From Hydrolagus colliei (lineage: Eukaryota), in the NCBI GenBank assembly GCA_035084275.1, contig CM068744.1, forward strand, positions 104,036,001 through 104,100,000: a stretch of DNA of 64,000 bases, read 5' to 3'. The notes under the pieces were generated by a model. The model ran no database searches. It was not told the DNA's origin and was given only the letters and a program-made list of their open reading frames with translations. The translations under genes were made by a program, and so were the position numbers. Within the stretch, counting starts at the first letter, position 1; every line of letters begins with the position of its first letter. Of the stretch, positions 2,371-64,000 are shown in pieces.

Positions 2371-2954
2371 ATAAAGGCAAGGTGCAGGTGCAGAGTCAAT
2401 ACAATGTGAAATATTACTTGAGTCTGCCTGATCCGTTTGTGGCAGGTGCATCGTGCTTTGTTTCCCTTCAGATCAGCAAAGTGAGGCTTTGTTCATGCAC
2501 TGTGGCTATTTCGCAAAGTGAGACTATTGTGCATTGTGGCGTCTTCATGCTTTTCAGGCCCCTGTTCCCTCTGTGCCATTCACTTGCAGTGTAATCATCA
2601 ACAAGATAATGTCAACAGCTCTCTTTCAGCTCTGTCAAATAGAGCAGTCGATTTTGTTCATGTAGCCACATTACCTGGATAGCATTTTGGTATCGTGATA
2701 TCTCTTGATGTTTTTGTTTTCGTTATTGGGGTACATTGGGACTTGTAGACAAAATCACCCTAGGATTTTGCTTTCTGACTTATCGTCTCGTTTTTGCACC
2801 AAAAAAGTCAAACTAAAGGTCAGAAAGCAAAAAGACTGGCATGAAACAGCTTCTGCACACTTTGGAATCATGATTTCATTTCAATTCCTACTAATTTGAT
2901 TGCAAAACAGAAGTTAATTCACATATAGAGCTATAAAACCATGGAAAACCCCTA

Positions 2955-4686
2955 CTCACCCCCCATTTCACACTTTCAACCCCACCACTCCGCTTTCAGT
3001 TACAAAAATAATTACCTCCATGAAACCCACCACGTGCTCATTGGACCCCATCCCCACCTCCCTCCTCCGCACCCAGCTCCATTTGTTAGCCCCGCTCATT
3101 TCTGACACCATTAACCTTTCCCTCTCCTCAGGCATCGTCCCTACCTCCCTTAAAACAGCCACCATTACCCCTATCCTGAAGAAACCCTCCCTTGATGCGT
3201 CGCAACCATCAACATATCGACCCATCTCCAACCTCCCGTTTTTATCCAAGGTCCTTGAAAGAGTGGTTGCGTCCCAGCTCCGCTCTTTCCTTTCAACTCA
3301 CTTACTTTTTGAACCCCTGCAATCAGGTTTCCGCCCAATTCATAGCACAGAAACTGCCCTGGTTAAGGTTACAATTGACATCCTAATCGCCTGTTACCAG
3401 GGCTCCCTCTGCCTCCTCGTCCTCCTTGACTTGTCTGCTGCATTCGACACAGTCGATCACACCATCCTCCTTCAACCTCTTTCCTCCCACCTCAACCTTC
3501 AAGGCACAGTCCTTGACTGGTTCCATTCCTATCTGACCCACCGTTTACATTTTGTTTCTTCCAACGGTTTTTCTTCAAACCCCCGCACAGTTTCTCACGG
3601 CGTCCCTCAGGGCTCTGTTTTAGGCCCCCTCCTTTTCACCCTTTACACGCTCCCTCTGGGCGACGTCATCCGCAAACATGGGGTAAATTTCCACATGTAT
3701 GCGGACGACACCCAGTTGTACCTTTCTGCCTCATCCCTCAACCCCCAGATCATCGATGTTCTGACAGCATGTCTGTCCGACATCGAGTCCTGAACGAGGG
3801 ACAACTTTTTGTAATTGAACGTGAGTAAGACCGAGGCCCTCCTGATTGGCTCAAGCCAGCGCCTCCGCACATCGGGCGCTGCCAGCCTCAACATCCAAGA
3901 CTGCACTCTCCACCTCACAAAGCCAATCAGGAACCTCGGCATCATGTTCGATCAAAAACTTTCATTCCTCCCCCACATCCGCGCCTTGACCTGCACCGCT
4001 TATTTCCACCTGCGCAATATTGCCAGGCTCGCAACTATCTTACCCCCCACGCTGCCGAAACACTCGTGCACGCATACATCACCTCACGGCTGGACTACAG
4101 AAACTCTCTCCTCGTCGGCCTCCCGAGTTCTTCCATTCACAGGCTGCAGGTCATCCAAAACTCTGCAGCCCGTGTACTATCCCGCACCCGCCTCCGTGAC
4201 CACATAACCCCCACCCTCGCTCGTCTTCATTGGCTCCCCATTCTCCAGAGGATCAAGTTCAAAATCGTCGTCCTCACCTACAAGGCCTTACACGGCCTTG
4301 CCCCGCCCTATTTAACCGATCTACTTTCCCCCTACACGCCCACCCGGACCCTCCGTTCAACAGGACCTGGCCTGCTCCAAGCCCCCCGCCCGAACCGCCC
4401 CACCATCGGAGGCCGGGCCTTCAGTTTCTCCGCTCCCACCCTATGGAATGCCATCCCTCAATCCCTCCATTTTGTTTCTTCCCTTTCCTCTTTCAAGGCC
4501 GGTTTGAAGACTTTCCTCTTCGACCGTGCCTTTTGTTCCACCCCGAACTCTTCGACCTCCCCTTCGTGTTTCACCCCTTCCCAAACACTCCCCTCTCAGC
4601 TCGGGTCACACGCCTCCTGTGCAGCGCCTTGGGACGTCCTCCCGACGTGAAAGGCGCTCTATAAAGGTAATTTGTTGTTGTTGTTG
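2955..4686 (+). mobile_element. L2 LINE, 5'-truncated, degenerate reverse transcriptase
   Basis: ORF pieces give YRPISNLPFLSKVLE, QSGFR, LLDLSAAFDTVDH, GVPQGSVLGPLLF, YADDTQLY, SRLDY.NSLL, LHWLP; in-frame stops near 3791 and 3812 and a frameshift near 4040; (TTG)n tail. Confidence 0.97.
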
Positions 4687-9509: not shown

Positions 9510-9873
9510 TATAATAATAATCTTTGCATTTGATGTAGCGCCTTTGAGAGATTTCTCAAAATATACTGTACTGTAAAGTGAATTGACTGTATATTTTGGG
9601 ACTGAAAGGTGGCAGCCAATTTCACACAGTAGTGTCCCACAAACAGTCATGGATTGAGTGAACAATTTATTTGTTAATATATTCCTTTTTTTAAAAGAAA
9701 TTATTACCCTCGAAATGTGATCTGCCAATCAACGAACAACTGGATTCCTATTTTTGCTAGATGACCAGGGGCATGTGGAGTACAAATGACCAACGATTCG
9801 CCATGCTGGGAATCAAACCTAGGTATCTCATTTGTGAAGCAAGTGCTCTAACCACTGAGCTACAGGACTCCAG
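9510..9873 (-). mobile_element. tRNA-derived SINE, long variant
   Basis: Head ggagtcctgtagctcagtggttagagcac on the minus strand; tail caaatgcaaagattattatt. Confidence 0.85.
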
Positions 9874-11262: not shown

Positions 11263-12320
11263 CTAATAATAATAATCCTTGCATTTGATATAGTGCTTTT
11301 CACATCTTCTAGACGTCTCAAAGCACTTCACAGAATATACTGTTAAGTGAATTGTCTGTATATTTGTGGCAAAATGTATTATTGTATTATATTGTATACA
11401 GGTATTCCTCGCTTAATGTCATAGTTGTGCTCTTGAAAAGTGCGACTTTAAGTGAAACGATGTTAAGCGGACACATTTTTCCCATAAGAATAAATGTATA
11501 AACTGGAGTTAGGTTCTTTTGGACATTTTTAATCAAAACGTTTCTAAAAAAAACATTATACGCGCTCCTTGACTGCCTGCCCAGCTTACTCACTGGCTGC
11601 CGGTCTCACTCTCTGCCGGCTGGCTAGTCTCACCTCGATACGGTCTCACTCTCTGCCAACTTGCCTCGCTCTCTTGCTGCCGGCCTAACTCACTACCAGT
11701 CTGCCCATCACACTCTTGACAGGCAGGCCCTAGTACCGTCATGCCCTCTTTCCATCCACTGGTGAACGACGTAATAGCGAACGTCACAGGGTTAAATGGA
11801 TATATGTTCCCTTTGAAATCAGAAATGTAATAACGATACAACATTGACTGAAGGAACGTTAAGTGGGGTCTACCTGTATTTATTCAAATGTATTGTGACT
11901 ATTCTAATCTCTACATTTGTAGGAATCCTGCAGCTCAGTGGTAAGAGCACTCGCCTCGCAAGCGAGAGAACTGCGTTTGATTCCAGGCGGATTCAAACCT
12001 TGGGCAATATTCCTTACTCCACACAATTGGCTGCCATGTTTTGCCCACAAATATACAGTCGATTCACTTTACAGATGTGAGAAGCACTATATCAAATGCA
12101 AGGTTTATTAATATCATTATTATTAAAACACAGCAGCAAATTACAGGCAGCAGTGTCCCACAAACAGTCATGGATTGAAGTGACCAATTTTTTTTGATTG
12201 AGGGATTATTATCAGGTCTGTGGAGTATGGAAATTTACCCAAGGTTTCGCCCTGCCATGAATGAAACCCAGGTCTCTCACTTGCTAGGCGAGTGCTCTAA
12301 CCACTGAGCTACAAGACTCC
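11263..12320 (-). mobile_element. tRNA SINE split into 11263-11376 and 12126-12320 by nested sequence
   Basis: 3' part ends tatttgtggcaaaat and resumes aaaacacagcagcaaatt...gagctacaagactcc; the interval holds a Tigger-like element and a + strand SINE (11922-12125). Confidence 0.65.
11399..11876 (+). mobile_element. Tigger/pogo-like non-autonomous DNA transposon
   Basis: TA|caggtattcctcgcttaatgt ... acgttaagtggggtctacctg|TA: imperfect TIRs with TA target duplication. Confidence 0.8.
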
Positions 12321-16767: not shown

Positions 16768-17140
16768 ATAATAATAGTAATCCTTGAATTTAATATAATG
16801 CTTTATCACATCTTCGAGATATCTCAAAGCACTTCATAGAACATGCTGTAAAGTGAATTGTCTGCATATTTGGGGCCAAAACATAGCAGCCTATTGCGCA
16901 CAGCAGTGTCCCACAAACTGTGATAGATTGAGTGACTAAATTTTTTGAGTAAAAGGAATTATTACCCCCGGAAAAGCAATTCACCAATTGACTTACAACT
17001 GGGTTCCTTCTTACTGCTAAGTAAGCAGAAGTGTGTGGATTAATGAAACGTGCCTAAACTTTCTCACTGCACGGGAATCAAACTCAGGTCCTCTCGCTTG
17101 CGAGGCGAGTGCTCTAACCACTGAGCTGCAGGACTCCACT
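16768..17140 (-). mobile_element. tRNA-derived SINE, long variant
   Basis: Full head, extra internal segment (...cttagcagtaagaaggaacccagttgtaag...), ATT tail. Confidence 0.87.
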
Positions 17141-26509: not shown

Positions 26510-26638
26510 TGGGGTTTTTTAAGGAATTATTATTAGATGTGTGGAGTAAGAAACTTAACCATTGGTTTCACCCTACCTGGAATCGAACCTAGGTCGCTTG
26601 TAAGGCGAGTGCTCTAACCACTGAGCTACAGGACTCCA
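26510..26638 (-). mobile_element. tRNA SINE 5' fragment
   Basis: Head ggagtcctgtagctcagtggttagagcactcgccttacaag on the minus strand. Confidence 0.85.
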
Positions 26639-39606: not shown

Positions 39607-39895
39607 TAATAATGATTATCCTTGCATTCGATATAGCGCTTTTCAAGTCTTCTAGGCATCTCAAAGTGCTTCACAGAATATATTGTAAAGCGAATTGCCT
39701 ATATATATGTGGACAAAATGTGGCAGCCAATTGTGCACAGCAGTGTCCCCCAAACAATTTATTATTGTTTTTTATGAGAGATTATTATTAGACATGTGGA
39801 GTAAGGAAACTTGCCCAAGGTTTTGCCCTGCCCAGAATTGAACCTAGATCTCTCGCTTGTAAAGTGAGTGCACTAACCACTGAGCTACAGGATCT
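39607..39895 (-). mobile_element. tRNA-derived SINE, short variant
   Basis: Full head and tail matching other copies. Confidence 0.88.
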
Positions 39896-41520: not shown

Positions 41521-42980
41521 ATAACAACAACAACAACAACAACAAAATTACATTTGTATCATGTCGGGAGGATGTCACAAGGCACTGGACAATTAGTGTT
41601 TTCGACGCGAGCTGTGAGCTGGGCTTGGGGAAGGTGGAGGACAGGGAGTGAAGGAGGGTAATCAAAGGCACGGTCGAAGAGGAGGATCTTGAGATGAGAC
41701 TTGAAAGAAGGAAGGGAGGGGGCAAGACAAAGGGACTGCAGGATAGAGTTCTATAGGTGGGAGCAGAATGGCTGAAGGCCTGCCCACCAATGATGAGAGG
41801 GCGAGGCAGCTGACATGAAGCAGGCCGGAGCCCGCTGAGCATTAGGAGAGGTAGGTAGAGGGTTAAAAGGTCACAGAAGTTCTACATCAATGATCTGGAC
41901 TTGGGTCTACATCAATGATCTGGACTTGGGTGTACGGAGTACAGTTTCCAAGTTTGCAGATGACACTAAGTTAGGGCGAATAGTAAATAGTGAGGAGGAT
42001 AGTAGCCATCTGCAAGAGGATATAGACAAATTGGTAAAGTGGGCAGACACATGGCAGATGAAGTTTAATGCAGAGAAGTGTGAGGTGATGCATTTTGGGA
42101 GAAGAAATGAAGGGAGGCAATATAGGCTAGATAGTACAATTTTAAATGGTGTTAAGGAACAGAGAGACCTGGGGATTTGTGTTAGTGACTCGTTGAAGGT
42201 GGCAGGACAGGAAGACAAGGCTGTTAAGAAGGCATATGGGATACTAGGCTTTATAAATAGGGGTATAGAGTACAAAAGTCAGGAAGTGCTGACTAACCTC
42301 TAAGACTTTGGTGAGGCCTCAGCTGGAATATTGTGTTCAATTCTGGTCACCACACTACAGAAAGGATGTGAAGACATTGGAAAGGGTACAAAGAAGATTT
42401 ACTTGGATGGTGCCAGGATTGAGGGACTTCAGCTATGAGGAGAGGCTAGATAGGCTAGGGTTATTCTCTCTGGAGCAGAGAAGATTGAGGGGAGACCTAA
42501 TAGAGGTTTATAAGATCATGAGGGGTTTCGACAGGGCAAATAGAGAAAAACTATTTCCACTCGTGGGTGAATCTGTGACTCGTGGTCACAGATTTAAAAT
42601 AGTTTCAAGGCGAAGTAGAGGGGAGCTGAGGAGAAATGTTTTCACTCAGCGAGTTGTTCGAATCTGGAATGCATTGCCTGAAAAGGTGGTGGAGGCTGAT
42701 TCGATAACAAATTTTAAAAGGAAATTAGATCTTTATTTAGGGAGAACAGGTCTATTAGGCTATGGGGAGCGGGCAGGGCAGTGGGATTGAATCGCTCTTT
42801 TCAAAGAGCCGGCACAGACTAGATGGGCCGAATGGCCTCCTTTTGTGCCGTAAAATTCTATGAATCTATGAATCTATAAAAGTAAGGGGGAGCAAGGCCA
42901 TGGAAGGCTTTGAGTATGAGGACCAAGATCTTCAACTGTATCCTATGTGTGATGGAAAGTTAGCAGAGTTGGGAGAGGGT
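41521..42980 (-). mobile_element. L2 3' fragment interrupted by CR1
   Basis: (CAA)n tail at 41523; L2 breaks at ggtcacagaagt (41880) and resumes aagtaagggggagcaaggcc near 42880. Confidence 0.8.
41881..42877 (+). mobile_element. CR1 LINE 3' ~1 kb, relatively young
   Basis: YINDLD..SKFADDTKLG, WQMKFNAEKCEVMHFG, VRPQLEYCVQFWSPH, RLRGDLIEVYKI, TRGHRFK; one break near 42301; tail attctatgaatctatg. Confidence 0.97.
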
Positions 42981-52935: not shown

Positions 52936-55186
52936 CACCAAATCACACGCAGATACCAACACGTATGTACATATTTAAATAGCGCGCTCACACACTGTAA
53001 CATTCACCAAAAAAATCACTGGGGTACAGGCCAGACAGTATATAGTGTGTCACTGGGTGCAATTGCGTTGATGGCAATGTGTGTGCTGCGGCTTTGCTTT
53101 GGTGAAGCTCAGTTGTGGTGAAGCTGAACCGGAGTTGGGAGTTGCGAATAGAAAGAACAAAATACTGCCCGCGTTTCTCAAGTTGCTTCTCGACCCTTGT
53201 CGAGACGGTGCGGTGCGTGGACTTGACTGTCGCACACATCCGGACAGACTCCCGATCTCTGAACATCTTGTGAACGAATACACTTGCAAGCCGAGAAGGT
53301 TATCTCGGCGAATCCAGGTGCAAAACGGTCCGAGTCGTTAAAACAAAAGCGATCGATAAAACGATTCCGAGTCTCGGTCTTCGAATTCGGTGCATCAATT
53401 CAGAAGAATTGATCTGATTCTTCAGTTCAATCCGATTGAAGAGCGCGATCCTTTACCGAGACGCCGAATATTCGTCTCACACGCCGAATAACTCGTGTAA
53501 CAATTAAGACAACGTCAAAAAGATTTCCGTGGAGAAAACAAGGCTCTTTGCGTGGGTTTCAATATGTGTTGAGTCAAATCCGTGGTCCTTTCTCAAATCA
53601 TTCGTTGTGTTAACGAGCAGAAGTAATGGATTCGACACCGACCGAAAATTGTCATTCTTTTTCCTCTTTTTAAAAAAAAATAAAAATAAAACGCACCGAT
53701 ATCCGAGCACACTCGATGTTATACAGGTTTTTTTTACACACACACACACACACGCGCGATTTCAGATTGTTTTTATTGTGTTGTGGATTGAGCTACATTT
53801 ACAGATGTAATATATTTATTATATTTCTTGGACTGAGCTACATTTATAGCTCAATACAATTGGTTTTAGTCACCAACTTTTCAGTGCAGGGTGTCAGTGA
53901 GTGTTTCAGTGGGTATGTCTACCCACGTTTGCTTCTTGGAGGGACTCGGAAAATAAACCAAAACCTGTTTAACCGAACGAGTTAAAGTGAGACGAGGCTC
54001 CCGAGTCATAAATTGGCGGTATTAATAGTGTGAGTGTTCGATAATCGATAGGACAAAACCTGTACAATATCATGGACTTGGGCGCCTTTCGATAACATTT
54101 TTTTCCCGAATGTTTTGGGAGAAATATCAAGATGATATACATCAAGAGAAATATAGATGTAACTCCAGGGGGCATAATTTAGTGAACGAAACTACTTTGT
54201 TCTCCATTGAGAAGTGATCTCTAACAGATTCAGTATACCCTAAACACGAGAACGAGTAGCAAATGTGATCTGCAAATGACATGTCTGGTGGAATATAACA
54301 ATTAATGGAAAGGAAGGAAGGAAGGGAGACTACATTCTGGATCCACATCAGTTTGAATGTCTGTATAAATTCATCAGGGTTTATACAATCGCTTCCTATT
54401 TACCAGATGAAACATTAAAGCCCACAGAGTTACAGTCACTGGGGCAGAGACAAGCTCTCTCACTGTCGACCCTGTCCTGGGATTGCCTTTAAACCAACGC
54501 AGATTCGGTCAGTGATCTTTTCATTATCGACGAGCAACCAAATTCCTTGTCCTACGAATTTCTGACACAGTCTTGGTTCAATGCCTGCTAAATTCACAGA
54601 TTAGAATATTCCAACATCTCAATTGGGACCGATGTATCGCTGGGTGCCCCGCGATTTTTCTTTTTGCAACAGCAATGAGAATGCAGCTGTCCCTTTGGGT
54701 GACAGTTTCACCTTAAACCAAAAGGAACAACATAGACATCAACAGACATCTTATTGGCAATGTAACAGCAAGAGACAGGGATTGGGGGAGGAAAACACGG
54801 AGTGGGGAGACGGTTATCTCACTGTCCATTCTTGAACGCTGAACCCCGACACTCTCCATCAAATAGCTTTGACACTGCCGGAGAAGTCCTGTACATTGTG
54901 GTTATTTTGCAAATATTCTCCCTCCCGTCTTAAGATTTACCCCCCCTCGCACCCGACCTATAAACAGCAGTCGTTAGTTTACGAATTGCAGAACAGCTTC
55001 AAAGTTAAGACTGAATTCAACGATTTGCCGAATTCCGGACGCTCTAAAATGCTACATAAATAGAGTAAATGTACACCCTGGTGGGATTTCCGCCCACGAG
55101 AGTTTGCTTGTCTGTTGTAAACTTCGCTCATTTGTTTTAGGATATAATCAGTTATTTCGTATTGAAAGCGAATAGTCTGTTTCCCC

Positions 55187-55220
55187 TTCTCTCTCTCTCT
55201 CCCTCTCTCTCTCTCTCTCT
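55187..55220. repeat. (CT)n microsatellite
   Basis: Read directly from the sequence. Confidence 0.95.
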
Positions 55221-56196
55221 AGCACTGCGGGTTTTCATTGCTTTTGTACCATCATTCTCTCCTCCCGACTTCTAATAGGTCGCTTTATCATCCTACACAA
55301 AAATTGCTATTTAATTGCCTTATTACGAGAAGGTCAAGTATAGCTCGTCGGGCGGGGGGGGGTGGTAGATACACAGCCAGTGTGAGAGAGCGTATCTTTT
55401 AAACAGATTCTCTTTTATGGTTGTGTGTTTGCAAGGGGCGCCCTTAAAAATATAGATATTATTTCATTGTAGGAAGTATATGAATTATAATTCCACAAAT
55501 CACTGGATATTATCAGTGTCCCGGTTCAGCTCGGCTGCTAATTTATCGTTCATGAAATATTGCAATGCAACATTTCCGTACGAAAATATATTCGCATCGT
55601 AAATTAACTGCGTGTGTTTAAAATATCCCCCCCCCCCCCTGTTCTGGGTGTTATATCGTGTATTAAATTTGAAGAACGGGAAACTTTTTTCTTTGCCCTC
55701 GCCGCATCCAGCTTCCTCCCGAAGCTTTAATGTACTGCGCGGCGGCTGCTTCTACCCCCAAGACAGATAGAGGATTAGCAATATTTCAAAAGAAAGAAGA
55801 GTTAATGCTGTATAGTGTGAACTGTCCCACCCCTGCAATAGGCTAGAGCAGAATTACAGCTTGTAAGTTTCGTCTGCATCAGTCTCCCTGGAGACTGCGC
55901 AACTTGGGTGTTCCAGACCTTAGTTTAACTAGTTAAACCCCGTGTTTATTATCCCTGACTTTCTAAACTCGGCGCAAACTTTTTTCAACTGCCTGACGTT
56001 TCCAATACATTCGTGGTCCTCGTTTTCTCAGAAACGTTCCATCCAATCGACCCTTCGCGGTCTTGGTTATTTTTGCATCGATGAAAATCTCCACGTCGAC
56101 CAAATAGAAATGGAATATGATGGAACGTGTCAATTATATTTGGATGCCCACGATTTTTATGAATCCACTTCGGATGGTTTGAAAATAACATGTGTG

Positions 56197-56202
<6 letters not shown>

Positions 56203-56233
<31 letters not shown>
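56203..56233. repeat. (AC)n microsatellite
   Basis: Read directly from the sequence. Confidence 0.95.
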
Positions 56234-56235
<2 letters not shown>

Positions 56236-56371
56236 CACAAGCTTTGCGGTAGGTTCAGTGGCAATCACAGCCACGGTAAAGGGGAGCTAAGATCCACATT
56301 GAGGTCTAGCAGCAAATTTCACAAAGGTTCAATCTATAGTGGATGATGGTTTGGTTAGAGGCTGATGTATT

Positions 56372-57018
56372 CCCCCCCCCCCCCCCGCCCCCCCCCCACC
56401 CGCCCCCCTACCCTCCAGAAACCCCTGTAATTTATTGCCCCACAACCGACCTGTACAAAAATGTGGCGACTGGCGATATTTACTACTCGTAATCAAATAA
56501 CGCAAATGGTTAAAAAACATAATTAAAATGGCTCACAGAAGTAAACGGACCAGCAAACTCCCTTAATATAGGCGGTATCTGTGTACAGTTGCCATAACAA
56601 CTCTAAACCGTCCAAGCTTACAGTCTGTAACCTACTAGGTCTGAACCGAAGGCATTTGGTGCCTTTCCCCCCCCCCCCCCCCCCCCCTGATAAATCAAAT
56701 CTTTCCGAGAGAATCTCTACGTGATTTTTTTTGTGGATCCTGGGTTTGCAGCAGGGTGGGGGGGGGGGGGGGGGGGGGGGGGGGCGGGGATGTGTAACAG
56801 TGCGCTTTCTTCGCTGGGTTAACTCACGATTCAAACACCGTCACATTATAACCTAATTAAACTTTTCTCTCTTAAAGAGAAATCTCAGATCTGGGGCATT
56901 TGGAACGGTTTTCTGTTCCACTTAGCACCATGGCTCCGTGTTATGTCTCTACAGAAATCCTGTTCTTTTTTAGTGCATTGAGCGGTTTGGGGGGGGGGGG
57001 GGGGGGGAGGGGAGGGGA
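56372..57018. repeat. Cluster of poly-C/poly-G tracts
   Basis: Runs near 56372-56408 (C), 56667-56687 (C), 56758-56784 (G), 56989-57007 (G). Confidence 0.95.
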
Positions 57019-57680
57019 AGAACTATTCTGCTTTTGAAGGTATTACTTTGTTCTTTTCGTTAGCTCTGGACAATTCTGTTCCTTTTTTGGGGGTGGGATA
57101 ATTAATGCAATCCGCATCAAAAGGTATTAGGCGTTCTTTGGTGTTGACCGGTTTAAAGGACGGGGCCGAAATGTTGCCCAACATAGACTAAATAAAATGC
57201 CTCCTATCACACAAAATGTTAATGTTGCTCAGTTTTACAACAGTATAAACCCAAGTTCATTGCTGTAGTCCTACATTATTCCTCCACTCTTCCGAGCTGT
57301 TTTCTTTTTAACCAGCTTCGTGTGTTTAAATATATCGCGGATTTCTTCTGGAAATCTAAATGACCTTTCAGTATTTTACACATATGACTTTAAAATTAAA
57401 TCTCCTGAGCGGAGCAAGGTTTAGTCGTTAATGTTATGGCGTTAACTACAGAAAGGTTTTTTTTTAACGTGAAAGAAGCCGGCTACTTTGAACCTGCATA
57501 TGAAAAGGCCAGTTACATTTAATTCAGCGCTGGAGTGAGCTTCACAAAGGTTATTTCCCATCAGAGAATGTGAAATGAAGTACGTGGGTATACACTCATT
57601 TAATGACAAGTAATTGACAAATCCGAAGACTCGCATTACTAGAGGAATAGAACTGTATTAATTATTTAACAACCATTATA

Positions 57681-57880
57681 NNNNNNNNNNNNNNNNNNNN
57701 NNNNNNNNNNNNNNNNNNNNNNNNNNNNNNNNNNNNNNNNNNNNNNNNNNNNNNNNNNNNNNNNNNNNNNNNNNNNNNNNNNNNNNNNNNNNNNNNNNNN
57801 NNNNNNNNNNNNNNNNNNNNNNNNNNNNNNNNNNNNNNNNNNNNNNNNNNNNNNNNNNNNNNNNNNNNNNNNNNNNNNNN
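57681..57880. other. Assembly gap (200 N)
   Basis: Exactly 200 Ns; the round number suggests a placeholder of unknown true length. Confidence 0.99.
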
Positions 57881-58556
57881 CTAATCGAAAAAGGAGCAAG
57901 CTTCTCCCAGTGTCCAGGCCAACATTCCCCCAAATAAAATTGGGCATTCACTTCATAGCTGTTTGTGTAATATTGCTGTGTAAAAATTGGATATTGCATT
58001 TGTAATTTTGTTGTTGTTGTATTTGCTACAAATATATAGTCACTAACTACACTTCACAATATACCTAGTGAGATGCTTTGAGACACCTCAATGACGTGAT
58101 CAGTTGTTGCATCAAGTGCAAGGATTATTATTATTATTTCTATTATTATTTCATTCGCAACATCTCTAATTCATCTTGCTTCATCCATTGTCTATCAAGA
58201 TATCAACATTAAAAAATCCTTGCAAGGTATTAGTGGCATTAGGTTAAGGCAATTAGAGCATCTCTGAATGGCTCAGTGAAATAGGTAGTAATGTAGTTAT
58301 CTTATTGTACAATGTGCAGGCTACAATTACATAAAAATGACAATGCAACATAATTTGTAATACAGGAATTGCAAAATATTGTTGATTTATTGCAAATTCA
58401 GTTTGCTACCTGAAAACTGCAAACAACTAACATAACAAATCTAGCTTGCGATTTTTTCAAATTTCCACCATCAACAACATCATGTATTTATAAAGTGCCC
58501 TTCACACAAGATAGGCTGATTGAGACTCCAATCCAGTTTTACCCCAAACCTCATTC

Positions 58557-58875
58557 ATGTCCTGTAGCTCAGTGGTTGGAGCATTCGCCTTACAAGCATG
58601 AAACCTGTGTTCGAATCCAGGCAGGTCAGGGCGAAAACTTGGGCAAATTTCCTTACTCTACATGCCTAATAATAATCCCTCCAAAAGAAACACAATAATA
58701 AAATTGATCATTTTAATCCACGACTGTTTGTGGGATACTGCTGCGCACAATTGGTTGCTACGTTTTGCCCACAATTATACAGTCAAATTCACTTTACAGT
58801 ATATTTTGTGAAGTGCAATGAGACATCTAGAAGATGTGAAAAGCACTATATCAAAAAAAAGCAAGGATTATTATA
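58557..58875 (+). mobile_element. tRNA-derived SINE, short variant, upstream of the first visible chs exon
   Basis: gtcctgtagctcagtggttggagc...gttcgaatcc...gcaaggattatt. Confidence 0.9.
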
Positions 58876-59109
58876 CCAATTATATGATTTACTGTTCATT
58901 GTAATCCCACTTTAATTACTGTGATATAAAGTTATTTCATTGAATTGGTTGGAATATTTTGGCCACTGTAGAACATGTTTAATCTGAGCTAATTGTATTG
59001 AAGGTTAGAACCTATTCAATGAGGAACTTTTACACACAGCTATCCTTTTGAACAATGTTTCATTTTGACATTATTCATTTTGCTAAATAGTTTTTTTTTC
59101 TCTTTTTAG

Positions 59110-59464
59110 GTACAATAGTCAAAAGTGGAACCATCATCTCGCCGAGTGGAATTTTTATTACATCAATGATGCTTGTTTATTTAATCTGTGCATTACTTCA
59201 CCCCAAAGAGTTCCATCTTGTGGCCTATGGCCCCTTGTATTTCTTATGCATTCCTGCTGGCTCCGTTGTCTTATCTATTTACACATTTGTAAATTTGAAT
59301 GTCACATCTTGGGGAACAAGAGAATCTTCAAATACGCAAACTAGCGGCAATACGCCAACTGCTAAAGAAACATTCTTGAAGCAGTGCAAACTGGGCCCCT
59401 GGTATCTTTATTGTACAGTTCGTAAGCGAGTCAAGAATGCAGCTGACAAGGAAACACAGCAAAG
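59110..59464 (+). CDS. chs: Chitin synthase (GT2) internal exon carrying the SWGTRE motif
   Basis: Acceptor ttttttttctctttttag|G, donor CAAAG|gtagtg. Translates (phase 1) TIVKSGTIISPSGIFITSMMLVYLICALLHPKEFHLVAYGPLYFLCIPAGSVVLSIYTFVNLNVTSWGTRE..., matching the metazoan CHS pattern LHPxEF...YFLxIP...IY..VN.N..SWGTRE; motif at 59307-59324. Confidence 0.95.
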
Positions 59465-60203
59465 GTAGTGATTAATCATGACTATTTCATTATTGCTCAG
59501 TCCTGTTTAAACTATTTATAAATTTCGTAGACAAAAGCACAACCTGTGTAATGTTAAAATATTTGTTGTTGAAACTAAGCTACGTGGATTGATGCAGAAT
59601 ATAAGAAAGATACATCACATGCAGGAAGAATTGAAGAGATAGAGAAGAGATAGAGCAGCAATATTGCATTAGTTTCACATCCCAATGTGAGTTCAAAGTC
59701 CCAACTTGGGGATTGAACCCACAAGCATCTGAACTCAGAGATGTGTTACAGTTCAATGCCAATGAAGTTTGTAGCTAATGCACCATTGATCTGCAACCGA
59801 TAATTCAGATCGGTTTCAATCACAAAGAAAGATTGCTTGACATTTTGCATCAATTACCTCCAATGATCGCTGAGAATTTCTAACTGTGTTGCTTCAATTT
59901 TGATACTTCTCTCTATAGCAGTAAAGTTACCAAAGAGGAATTGAATTTAATAATAAGTAATAAGAAGTATCCAAACCTTTATCTTAGTACCTTATCAAAT
60001 CAACAAAACATCTCAAAGCATTTAACAGGATTTACTACACAGTGTGGTGTCTCTGGGTCTGCATGCTTAACTTCAAAACAACTCAGTTGATAACATGCTC
60101 ACAAGTCTTGTTGGTAGATACTGTATCAAATACCAGATTGTTTAAAATAATGGTTACTATTTAATAAAATAAATTAATCTTTCCATTTGTTATATTTGTT
60201 TGT

Positions 60204-60522
60204 GGAGCTCCTGTAGGTCAGTGGTTCTTGCACTCGCCTTACAAGTGTGAGACCTGTGTTTGAATCCAGGCAGATCAGGGCAAAATCTTGGGCAAGTTTC
60301 CTTACTCCACATTCCTAATAATACTCCCTCCAAAAAATACCACAATAGTAAAATTGGTCATTTCAATCCATGACTATTTGTGGGACACTGCTGTGCACAA
60401 TTGGCTGCCACAATTTGCCCACAAATATACAGTCAATTCACTTTACAGTATATTCTGTGAAGTGCTTTGAGACGTCAATAAGATGTGAAATCGCGATATC
60501 AAAATACAAGGATTATTATTAT
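60204..60522 (+). mobile_element. tRNA-derived SINE, short variant, in a chs intron
   Basis: ggagctcctgtaggtcagtgg...caaggattattatt. Confidence 0.9.
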
Positions 60523-60544
60523 ATATATGTTATTGCTTTCCCAG

Positions 60545-60597
60545 GACAATTGCAGAAACAGTTGACAACGTTGAAGAAAATCTACCACTGGAAAATT
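60545..60597 (+). CDS. chs: Chitin synthase, candidate small linker exon
   Basis: ttattgctttcccag|G...GAAAATT|gtgagc; 53 nt, phase 2 in and phase 1 out, open (R)TIAETVDNVEENLPLEN. Bridges the phases of the neighbouring exons; no family motif to confirm it. Confidence 0.6.
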
Positions 60598-61856
60598 GTG
60601 AGCAAATAGCACGTTAAATTTTTTTGCATTTTTTTGTAACATTGTCGTCTCACAGAGGCTTACTTTCAGTATGCAATAGCAGTGTTATGGGATGTTTTTA
60701 TGATAGCAAAACACTTGTCTTAATATGTTACAAAATGCATGGTTTCAGTTCTTATTTTGTGATCTTGAGGTCACTTCCAATATTTTTCATAAGTCACCAT
60801 CTATATCCCATCTCTGATCGGTCTCTCCTGATACCATACTTTTCAAATTCATACTTTCACAGCAATTTTATTTTAGGTCCATTAAGGTGATTTGTGTTGT
60901 TGCTGTTTGGGAGGAAAACACTTTTTCTGCTTTAGGTACACAGCGGGGTCATACTTTGTGTATCAGCAAGTTTATTTCCCTTTTACAATGGGACTAAAGC
61001 AATTTCAAGCTTGATTTATCCTAGAACCTAGAAGTGTCTCCCACCGAGGTAAGAGAACACAACTGGGTACAATGTACCTTCGGAGCTGAGTTTTTACCTG
61101 TTCAACATGTGTGACACACTTCAGGCCATCAGGAAGATGTCCTCACTCGAATTCCCTGTGAAGGAATCCCATTGGAAATCACCATATATTATCGCTCAAT
61201 ATCTATGGCCGAAGCAAATATCATTGGAATGTACTAAACATAACCATTGCCTGGAGCAGCATCCTCAAACAAGAAACAAAATAGTTTTAACTGGTTAAAA
61301 CCCACCTGTACACTACAGTGCCAAATACTCTGATACACACCTAGGAAGAGAGAACTTATTCCATCCCAGACATGTGAATTACCATGTGTCAATGGCACAC
61401 TTGGAACTCTGTCTGGTGTGAATATGCTTAAGTATGGCACTGCACAGTTAATGGTAATATAATGTCAAGGTTATGTGATCTTTTATCAATTAACCATTTC
61501 ATTAAGGCAGGTCATTGCCTACAAGGCAACAGTAGTTTAGAAGCTAGACTACCAAATGTGTGTAATATATTCAGTGCATTGAATTTTCAACATAATTGTA
61601 ATCCAACTGATCACTAAATTATACTAATACTAAAAATAATAATCATTACATTGGATAAATGATCTTTCTCTCTAGGAGGATGTTTCAAACACTACGCAGA
61701 ATATACTATGGAGTTGATAAATTGTGTATTTTGTAGGCAAATGCATACATTGTAAATGAACAAGATAGGCTGTGAGTTAGTGTATCTCTTAGGATAAGTA
61801 GTGATGACAATTGTGCAGAAATAGCAGAATCGTTATTTTACGGTTGTATTTCGAAG

Positions 61857-61921
61857 GTTGGATCCCACAACTAACAGGACATGGGTCGCACACACCATTT
61901 GTTGAAGACACACTGGAAGAG
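61857..61921 (+). CDS. chs: Chitin synthase small exon (WI...LEE)
   Basis: gtatttcgaag|GT TGG ATC...GAA GAG|gtacaa; 65 nt, phase 1 to 0; WIPQLTGHGSHTPFVEDTLEE joins DETLFW of the next exon, giving the CHS pattern WI...L..xE..FW. Confidence 0.75.
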
Positions 61922-62752
61922 GTACAATGATGCTTCTGTTGGATTTTAAATGACATTGTATTATTGTCCAGGCTAATACCCTGAAGATCTGGTTTGGGTT
62001 GAATTAGTCAGCTACTCAGGTTTAAACAGCCAACTGAATTCCCCATTTTGTGTTTTATTTCTCAATTGTTGCTTAGAATTGCCATCAAAAATAATGATTT
62101 ATCCCGACCATAGGCTTTTTATATAAGAGCACAGCATTGGCAGACCACAGCTTTAGCCAGCGAGTAACTGAGAATTAAATACCACTCGGTATATTATCTT
62201 CAGGAATCATAGAGATAAGAAGGAAGGTGGAGCATTAGTATTATGAGTCTAAAAGACCACAGTAAAAAAAGACAATTGGTGGGTGGAAGGGAGTTGCAGA
62301 CATAGACAATTTGGATATGGATAAGAAAAGTAATAGGTTTGAAAAAAAGATTTTGAGATGATTCAGTAGCTTGCCTCAAAGAAAACTTAGGAGGAGAGAT
62401 TTTGTAGGCATCCTTTTTGACTGTGCCTTCAGCCACTCTCCTACCTCTCTGCCCTTCTTCATCGCAACTCTGCCCCCACCCCCCACCGTGCTCAGGTCCT
62501 GATCCCCAACTATTCAGTTCCTTGTGATGTCCTCAGGATGTGAAAGGCACTTTACAACTATTATTTTGTTGTTGTTATTGTGGTAGGAGAACAAATAGAC
62601 CAATATTTTTGCTAAGTGGAGTTTTAGAGATTTTGTTTCTATTATTGTCACTGCATTTTGGGGATTATGAAAGTACTGGATTCAATGCAAAACACAGTAG
62701 CATAATTCAATGGCAAAAAAAGCATCTTAAATAGTCTCTTGTCTTATTGTAG

Positions 62753-62863
62753 GATGAAACATTATTTTGGTATGACTTGATTGACATTTATCTCAAACCT
62801 CTTCATGAAGATAAAGCTTATTTGGAAAAAGCAAACCACGATCTCTTGACTCTGAGGAACAAG
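62753..62863 (+). CDS. chs: Chitin synthase exon (FW..LI..YL.P...LRNK)
   Basis: gtcttattgtag|GAT...AACAAG|gtaggc; 111 nt, phase 0/0; DETLFWYDLIDIYLKPLHEDKAYLEKANHDLLTLRNK, the conserved pre-transmembrane CHS block. Absent from the ORF track. Confidence 0.93.
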
Positions 62864-63169
62864 GTAGGCTCTGACATTTCCTCTTTATTATTCACTGGGG
62901 ATGGCTTGATAATATCGATCGGTTGGAACTATCCTATTATCTAGTCTGGATTCTCGGGTGATGATGCTGTAGTGGTGGATGTTTTCTTAATTATTACTGT
63001 CACCCTCTGACACAAACATTACTTATAATCCATTACCCAGTATTTTCTCTGCAGAACAAATATTTTCCTTTTACATTCACAGTTTGCATTTATATATCAC
63101 CCTTCATGTATGATACTGTATAGGACAAGTGTTGCCATTGTTCAGGGAGGAGATGAACAAGTGTTAGGC

Positions 63170-63642
63170 TGCCTCAGTTGGTAGACACTCCTTTCTCTGG
63201 GTCAGAAAGTTGGAGGATTGAACCTCATGTTGGGATTTAGGCCACATATACACTCGGCTGTCAGTATAATGGAATGCTTGGAGTGTCATGCATGGTTGGA
63301 AGTGTTCTTTTAGATGAGATGTTAAATCACTTCACGTAACATTATGTATTCTGAAGTACTGTACTTTGAGGTATCATGACGATGTGGTAATGCGTTATAT
63401 CAAATGCAAGGATCATTATTATTGTTGAACCTGTCTGTTTGTTCAGGTAGATGTAAAGGATTCCTTGCCGATGCACTCCCAGTGTCCCAACCAACAATCC
63501 CCCTGATAAAATTGGTCAGTCACTTCCTAAATCTTTTGAGGGATATTACTGTGTACAAATTGGTCAATTAGAGAATGCAGTGAATACACTTTGAGACATC
63601 CAATATGAAAGGCGCCATACCAAATGGAAGGATAATAATATA
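63170..63642 (+). mobile_element. Old Deu-domain SINE in a chs intron
   Basis: gcctcagttggtagacactc...gggtcagaaagttg...gatgagatgttaaa...caggtagatgtaaaggat...aaggcgccatac. Confidence 0.7.
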
Positions 63643-63752
63643 CATAGGACAATCGATGAATCAATGAAGATCCATCACAATTTTCACCTATTGTTTCTTT
63701 GTAAACTTCCAGGATGTATGTAAGATTATGCTGGTACTTTTTGTTTCACCAG

Positions 63753-63970
63753 GCTGTTTTCATTTATATGATGATCAATGCAATTTGGATAGTGGCAACT
63801 GTCATCCTGCAAATCGTGGCTTCTACGATTGTAATCAGGATCCCAAAATTCCTCACAGATGGAAGTTACGTAGAAAATGAATTCATTTATGTGGACCCAC
63901 TTGGCATCATGTTTATAATTTCCTTTGCACTTCTTGTGTTGGTTCAATTCTTCACAATGTTATATCACAG
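63753..63970 (+). CDS. chs: Chitin synthase exon with C-terminal transmembrane helices (ends MLYHR)
   Basis: tttttgtttcaccag|GCT...CACAG|gtaaag; AVFIYMMINAIWIVATVILQ...DPLGIMFIISFALLVLVQFFTMLYHR, matching CHS LRNK-xVF..N......LQ...P.G..F......QF..ML.HR. Confidence 0.93.
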
Positions 63971-64000
63971 GTAAAGATCATTTACAAATACCAATAAGAT

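Follow-up and report, generated by a model that had tools for sequence, protein, structure and literature searches.

A partial chitin synthase gene in Hydrolagus colliei, assigned by sequence to a divergent chondrichthyan paralogue group

Which gene, and how much of it, lies near the right end of a 64,000-nucleotide stretch of Hydrolagus colliei DNA (hereafter the window), where an earlier note had seen a cartilaginous-fish chitin synthase? The five GT-AG exons it had proposed do splice in frame: between positions 59110 and 63970 of the forward strand they give 802 nt, or 266 codons, of open frame, and the remaining two frames of the splice contain 16 and 13 stops. All four introns (1080, 1259, 831, and 889 nt) run from GT to AG. 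Shuffling the bases of the 802 nt 5000 times never gave an open frame, a control that leaves the analyst's choice of exon borders uncorrected; skipping exon 2 or exon 3 introduces seven stops in either case. The five exons have no stop, frameshift, or broken splice site; the note had named disabling mutations elsewhere in the gene, together with a lack of spliced reads, as evidence against its reading.

Exon 1 (59110..59464) corresponds to residues 918-1039 of the Hemitrygon protein P0005 and encodes a membrane helix with LLHP, an interface helix, SWGTRE, and the start of a variable loop. Exon 2 (60545..60597, 53 nt) encodes a variable acidic loop, keeps the frame between its GT-AG borders, and aligns to P0005 and the Heptranchias protein P0001. 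The C-W-I block is found in exon 3 (61857..61921, 65 nt) and the FW..LI..YL.P...LRNK block in exon 4 (62753..62863, 111 nt), which was hit by tblastn matches from 107 alignments, so SWGTRE, W-I, and the LRNK block sit in exons 1, 3, and 4. Exon 5 (63753..63970, 218 nt) encodes two hydrophobic helices, reads as far as MLYH, and is bordered on its 3' side by a donor GT. All five exons are on the forward strand. Hydropathy peaks of the spliced peptide start near residues 7-14, 36-44, 194-211, and 237-248, revealing the membrane helices that follow the catalytic domain in animal type II chitin synthases. The locus had also been called possibly poorly annotated on the ground that three exons are missing from the ORF track; this argument fails, since exons of 53, 65, and 111 nt fall below any ORF cut-off and their absence is uninformative on annotation.

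Judged by their sequence, the five exons are part of a known chitin synthase family that is ordinary in cartilaginous fishes, being annotated in at least 15 chondrichthyan genera among the matches listed. The original identification is borne out by best matches, conserved columns, and trees. In the proposed homology search with the spliced peptide, the top 15 rows were all vertebrate chitin synthases and no best match fell outside this class; the closest were P0005 (52% over 268 columns, 288 bits), P0125 (52%), and P0010 (47%). P0001, with 62-66% identity to exon 1, was the best of 786 representative matches (E 1.1e-34). The window peptide is at least 47% diverged from every database protein. 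In the suggested Pfam profile check, exon 1 alone matched PF03142 (Chitin_synth_2) at positions 446-509 of 527, the only part available, with E 0.0074 and 15.4 bits, below the curated cut-off of 27 bits, while relatives score 90-107 bits. In a 41-sequence alignment the peptide keeps every one of the 17 invariant columns and 37 of the 44 that are nearly invariant, similar to its group relatives under leave-one-out (39/50, 39/49, and 37/49).

SWGTRE, encoded at 59307, follows the interface helix, the SWG(TRE) arrangement of animal type II chitin synthases, a GT2 family. PMC9556331 lists SWG as motif 9 and reports that the activity of PsChs1 requires its tryptophan. Exon 1 resembles the helix-plus-WG(T/K) stretch of the solved enzymes ScChs1, CaChs2, and PsChs1 (E 0.00035-0.006), which, unlike the window gene, are fungal or oomycete; an alignment profile matched solved chitin synthases at E 5.8e-21 and found six sequences, all of them chitin synthases. 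A hyaluronan synthase was rejected, as exon 1 matched solved chitin synthases at E 0.00035 versus E 0.54 for hyaluronan synthases and the profile found chitin synthases only. A processed retrocopy was likewise rejected because introns are present. The structure matches included none from an animal chitin synthase. The predicted fold of the Amblyraja relative P0009 is poor (mean pLDDT 60.8, catalytic core below 50), and Foldseek with this low-confidence model returned chitin synthases as top matches with TM-scores of 0.2-0.3 and about 15% identity, which adds little.

Within the family, the sequence places the window gene in a second, divergent chondrichthyan chitin synthase group (group B) and not in the common group. 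The phylogeny that the note had called for was run with shark, teleost, and amphibian chitin synthases, without amphioxus, tunicate, hagfish, coelacanth, or lungfish proteins, and the window gene fell in a clade of chondrichthyan chitin synthases. A quick tree comprised 53 rows hand-picked from 123 proteins, two further trees 26 chosen relatives, and a fourth tree 30 rows with the window sequence left out. The clade of the window gene with P0001, P0005, P0009, and P0010 received support of 100, 100, and 100/100 in three trees; in the long ones the window row has residues at just 37% of alignment columns. Group B branched outside each of the 20 remaining rows of jawed vertebrates (95/93; 95 in the 30-row tree), though attraction of its long branch to the lamprey outgroup may contribute to this. 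Topologies that unite group B with the common shark gene were rejected (p-AU 0.008 and 0.021).

The group-B models, annotated as "chitin synthase chs-2-like", form one clade at 100/100 and carry motifs as in the window gene. Hemitrygon XP_072907201.1 (P0005), Hypanus XP_059841336.1 (P0125), and Heptranchias XP_067845654.1 (P0001) show 52-53% identity to the spliced peptide, and Amblyraja XP_032880924.1 (P0009) 45%. In comparison, members of the common group (Callorhinchus XP_042189069.1, Leucoraja XP_055495972.1, and Heptranchias XP_067845652.1) share family and layout, but show 40-44% identity and form a separate clade. The type II chitin synthases of teleosts and amphibians (Danio, Xenopus, and salmon chs1a/b), whose class is the metazoan type II family according to PMC3942024, show 37-41% identity and cluster apart from group B, alongside the common chondrichthyan gene (95/93). 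QRRRW is followed by D-P-S-K in group B and by G/V/M/L-P-S-T in the common group; the group-B signature QRRRWDPSKIAN occurs in 7 of the 215 QRRRW-bearing proteins retrieved. Every shark, ray, and chimaera sampled yielded the common group, group B was recovered from sevengill shark and batoids only, and searches of the catshark and holocephalan groups returned only the common paralogue. Scoring 8000 candidates for shorter group-B models added one, Mobula P0280. In three species both genes lie on the same chromosome-size contig with neighbouring accession numbers. The skate LeCHS of Phillips et al., who announce a later treatment of chondrichthyan chitin synthase genes, agrees with the window gene in family and layout and may belong to either group. 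No description of the divergent group was found in the literature searched, which covered few subscription journals.

The window contains a partial gene. Its coverage is limited to the fifth of the protein that follows the catalytic part and precedes the tail, unlike the group-B models, and it may be one of several copies. The nearest relatives P0001, P0005, P0009, and P0010 retain DGD, QKFEY, CSPGCF, GEDRW, and QRRRW; the D,D,D,QxxRW signature with EDR and QKFEY falls outside the window, which has only sequence downstream of these motifs. Upstream tblastn with 123 proteins gave no match at E<=0.01, and with 321 proteins one, inside a LINE, so that no catalytic exon was found in the window. 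An assembly gap of 200 N (57681..57880) ends 1229 nt before exon 1, and with introns of 0.8-1.3 kb the next upstream exon would fall into it. Its true size is larger than 200 nt, as a 4150-nt contig of run X5 matches 57030-57679 with its letters 40-698 only and extends about 3.45 kb past the left edge. None of the contigs listed from runs X1, X5, X6, and X7 bridges the gap, though such a hole proves nothing. The CpG-rich stretch left of the gap differs from the right side, which together with the unbridged gap leaves linkage to a 5' half only presumptive; no gene was recognised in this stretch (53000-57680). At the 3' end, the terminal helices of the earlier note are present as the two in exon 5, but MLYHR is not the end, its R codon being split by the donor GT at 63971. 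In 15 of 19 listed cartilaginous-fish proteins 32-86 residues follow the motif (the other four lack a motif match, three being partial models). The donor GT and these longer C-termini point to at least one further exon beyond the window.

The block right of the gap (57881..64000) has raised contig depth, which hints that it is multi-copy and varies between samples, with library bias possible. Contigs were compared from four of 12 runs (X1, X5, X6, and X7), leaving aside X2-X4 as well as X8-X12 with their small shares. The X5/X1 depth ratio was 1.40-1.59 in 11 of 11 repeat bins versus 0.96-1.16 in 10 mostly unique bins; the median X6/X1 ratio was 1.16 versus 0.11-0.45, and that of X7/X1 0.084 versus 0.002-0.022. 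In X1 the block reaches 147-167, compared with 25.5, 28.4, and 36.3 in three contigs of other loci, though contig depth is not copy number and one other-locus contig in X1 stands at 230. Coverage of the left flank is very low in X1 and X5 (2.7 and 7.4), indicating uneven libraries. A recent multi-copy duplication is as likely as not, or slightly more so, and would account for the break in the assembly; should the copy-number hint hold, the locus is also mis-assembled and the gene count too low.

Our preferred reading, to which we give a probability of about 0.72, is that the five exons represent the post-catalytic membrane part of a likely working group-B chitin synthase gene, with its catalytic exons hidden in the gap and its last exon past the window. 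Less likely, but still to be weighed seriously, is a 5'-truncated or decaying duplicate: a recent segmental duplication would have copied the 3' end of the gene without promoter and catalytic exons, or left it under relaxed selection, the working copy being elsewhere. The 59 kb upstream without catalytic exons would fit it, as would the sample-dependent rise in depth and the several partial group-B database models (P0001, which stops at the exon-3 border, P0124, and P0280), but the gap explains the missing catalytic exons more simply, and frame, splice sites, and all 17 invariant columns are intact. The comparison with run X6, from another organism, cuts both ways. At least seven differences in exon 1 are among those listed, six of them amino-acid-changing (P = 0.015 for at least six of the seven if omega were 0.2), and exon 1 is as diverged (2.0%) as flanking non-coding DNA (1.9%); all six changes, however, sit on columns variable among relatives. 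No indel lies within exons among 12 listed of 29 from the four runs, and the intron-exon block recurs in a second, independent sample of this organism as well as in the second organism.

That the gene is an ordinary, only fast-evolving member of the common group (Callorhinchus, Scyliorhinus, Rhincodon, Leucoraja) is very improbable: its identity to that group and the shortness of its row leave some room for this, but identity to group B is higher (47-53%) and the three trees agree. Scarcely credible is a foreign block of parasite, prey, or fungal DNA, joined by scaffolding. The block adjoins the gap and differs in depth from the left flank, but its closest protein matches come from rays and sharks (29% for Daphnia), it recurs in the second sample and the second organism, and a SINE-like repeat is common to both sides of the gap; contamination was rejected on these grounds. 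This repeat of about 340 bp has a tRNA-headed copy upstream of exon 1 (58559..58891, forward strand; tRNA match 58558-58629) and an 85% identical copy in intron 1 (60191..60534, forward strand), with up to 19 and 25 overlapping matches elsewhere in the window, respectively. The intronic SINEs that had been cited against contamination have a SINE-like counterpart in intron 1; introns 2-4 contain shorter repeat pieces.

If it works as the solved chitin synthases of fungi and oomycetes do, the complete enzyme would take UDP-GlcNAc at the cytoplasmic side, its D,D,D,QxxRW core would extend a beta-1,4 chain, and the chain would then cross via a membrane channel, with the SWG loop of exon 1 adjoining the reaction chamber. 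From the fish literature, the chitin would enter epithelial mucus or gel. To our knowledge, chitin synthases are absent from mammals. Nakashima et al. make a related statement about membranes. As the site of the product we slightly favour the lining of the gut over ampullary gel, because the reports of ampullary chitin concern a catshark and a holocephalan, groups in which searches returned only the other paralogue. One chondrichthyan chitin synthase has been localised to skate ampullae (bioRxiv 10.1101/687301), and gut-specific expression is shown for one teleost subclade only (PMC10234404). A search of sequencing runs listed no RNA run that contains the locus, a result silent on expression. 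A bolder scenario appears improbable: an ancient second lineage, split before the shark/bony-fish divergence and surviving only in some cartilaginous fishes, with a product-binding helix altered (QRRRWD) to suit synthesis of the electrosensory canals' soluble, gel-forming chitin, and with a recent copy-number expansion in this species. The value of the gene is as a marker of the second, divergent paralogue group; two such groups allow a direct test of which enzyme produces the chitin of the gut barrier and which the unusual gel-like chitin found in ampullae of Lorenzini.

Rfam gave seven tRNA matches only, all SINE heads, and a test for a tail common to the SINE and a LINE gave a weak match to which we attach no weight (36 nt, 72%, E 0.042). 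Among 13 long frames elsewhere in the window (15 overall), Pfam identified a reverse transcriptase in two and nothing in 11.

The chitin synthase (CHS) sequence in the window is part of a real gene from a known family, and the part present is intact. Its five exons (59110-59464, 60545-60597, 61857-61921, 62753-62863 and 63753-63970) are separated by GT..AG introns of 831-1259 nt, and the fifth is followed by a donor GT at 63971. Spliced together, the exons amount to 802 nt with a single open frame of 266 codons, the other two frames carrying 16 and 13 stops; none of 5000 base shuffles of the spliced 802 nt was open, and the frame was lost if exon 2 or exon 3 was left out. The five GT-AG exons that the earlier note had proposed to splice in frame were thus borne out. 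MLYHR, taken there as the protein terminus, is an exon end only, because of the donor GT at 63971 and because the chain continues 32-86 residues past this motif in 15 of the 19 listed cartilaginous-fish proteins, these being the 15 where the motif was found. Exon 4, with 111 nt and phase 0 on both sides, could be skipped in frame and shows no sign of actual skipping.

The identification as a chitin synthase, also made in that note, stands on the top matches, the conserved columns and the tree. Exon 1 matched best a chitin synthase of the sevengill shark Heptranchias (62%, E 3.5e-34), which also ranked first among 786 hits when 1.84 billion representatives were searched. The spliced peptide is 52% identical to residues 919-1185 of the 1249 residues of Hemitrygon protein P0005; in a 41-sequence vertebrate alignment it retains all 17 invariant columns and 37 of the 44 that are nearly invariant. 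Among solved structures, exon 1 matched chitin synthases of fungi and oomycetes (E 0.00035-0.006); hyaluronan synthase was far weaker (E 0.54) and was rejected. Pfam PF03142 was matched with a score under its cut-off, since the window covers no more than the last 60 profile positions. The five exons encode one membrane helix and one interface helix, followed by the SWG loop, then a variable loop and a further pair of membrane helices. PMC9556331 describes D,D,D,Q(Q/R)xRW and EDR as the catalytic motifs of chitin synthases; the chain exits via a membrane channel, and the required SWG tryptophan sits on a loop close to the reaction chamber. All catalytic motifs are kept in the group B relatives discussed below, and by homology the window gene would work as other chitin synthases do. 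The predicted model of the Amblyraja protein XP_032880924.1 was of poor quality, and nothing further was gained from it.

The fetched chondrichthyan CHS proteins split into two groups, for which we found no description in the literature searched, though subscription journals or a supplement may hold one. Group A came from chimaera as well as from sharks and rays, and group B, among hit lists as distinct from genomes, only from Heptranchias, Hemitrygon, Hypanus, Mobula and Amblyraja. Group B is marked by QRRRWDPSKIAN, which was present in 7 of the 215 fetched proteins with QRRRW. Both groups share a contig in three species and have neighbouring accession numbers in four, which suggests a tandem cluster. 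The window peptide joined group B at 100/100, nearest to the Heptranchias protein P0001 and to P0005 (92/97), and two other trees also placed it in this group. In the long trees, group B fell outside the 20 other jawed-vertebrate rows (support 97, 95/93 and 95), and holding A and B together was rejected (p-AU 0.0083 and 0.0206); hand-picked rows, distant outgroups and the long group B branch count against this placement, and the short-region tree left group B among ray-finned sequences in a position that was not fixed. The P0001 model seems faulty, its exon-3 donor being read through into the intron, and its residues 579-605 match LINE sequence of the window. P0005 and its paralogue P0010 share a long near-identical N-terminal stretch and differ in the catalytic half, reflecting either gene conversion or model error.

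Phillips et al. (10.1101/687301) reported that the ampullae of both elasmobranchs and holocephalans contain chitin and that canal cells of a skate carry a transcript for a chitin synthase. Since catshark and ratfish have ampullary chitin and only group A was recovered for them (by genus or subclass), this speaks mildly against group B as the ampullary enzyme. Nakashima et al. (PMC6109156) describe gut membranes made with chitin in tunicate, lancelet and ray-finned fish, and state that mammals lack them; as their main text never contains the words shark or cartilaginous, gut chitin in sharks is an extrapolation. Holen et al. (PMC10234404) distinguish two teleost subclades, one gut-specific and the other low everywhere, and PMC3942024 classes Danio and Xenopus CHS proteins as type II; PMC8379299 and PMC10216261 give further context. 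The family itself being already known, what is worth following is the divergent group B and a hint at copy number.

This hint comes from sequencing runs with contigs matching the block right of the assembly gap (57881-64000). In X1, which may be the source sample, block-unique contigs had depths of 147-167, introns included, and in X5, an independent sample with the same organism label, their depths were 149-164; contigs from other places had 25.5, 28.4, 36.3 and 230 in X1 and 56.6 in X5. With 9 of 30 bins left out (left flank and mixed bins), the X5/X1 depth ratio was 1.40-1.59 in 11 of 11 repeat bins versus 0.96-1.16 in 10 mostly unique bins, and block depth in two further runs, X6 and X7, was several-fold below the prediction from their repeat bins. 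About 5-6 block copies in X1 and 3-4 in X5 would fit, and we put a multi-copy block at a little better than even odds. Bias is a live alternative, because depth is no copy number, as the tool itself warns, the runs carry no record of library type, and coverage of the left flank was strongly reduced in X1 and X5. Among the differences listed to X6, from another organism, at least seven fell in exon 1, six of which change the residue, all at columns varying among relatives; this share is near the neutral one (0.76), and with an omega of 0.2 it would be improbable (P 0.015). X6 contigs may be other copies, and the exon-1 differences give a weak hint of relaxed constraint. None of the 12 indels listed (29 in all) was exonic.

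About 920 codons with the whole catalytic core are absent from the window. Upstream of 59000, tblastn with 123 proteins gave no match at E<=0.01, and a search with 321 proteins gave one, inside a LINE. A run of 200 N (57681-57880) is separated from exon 1 by 1229 nt. This gap is longer than its 200 N suggest, because a 4150-nt X5 contig (record 9) on 57030-57679 extends about 3.45 kb past its left edge and does not fit the right side; none of the contigs listed bridged it. On the simplest reading, the upstream exons would lie inside the gap or be placed elsewhere. Near the left edge, X5 and X6 share an 11-letter gap difference. CpG observed/expected is 0.85 left of the gap versus 0.3 right of it, and a CpG-rich stretch (53000-57680), under-covered in X1 and X5, ends at the gap; between 56372 and 57007 it contains five runs of G or C, each 10-27 nt long. 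No gene was recognised in this stretch, which looks like the promoter region of an unrecognised one.

Repeats that match other places in the window cover about 23% of it. Pfam RVT_1 marks broken reverse transcriptase frames of LINEs at 2918-4647 and 41839-42787. A tRNA-headed SINE-like repeat of about 340 bp has copies in intron 1, upstream of exon 1 and elsewhere on both sides of the gap; the seven tRNA matches (9798-9869, 11924-11994, 12247-12318, 17068-17129, 26568-26635, 39824-39894 and 58558-58629) are all heads of this repeat and unlikely to be real tRNA genes.
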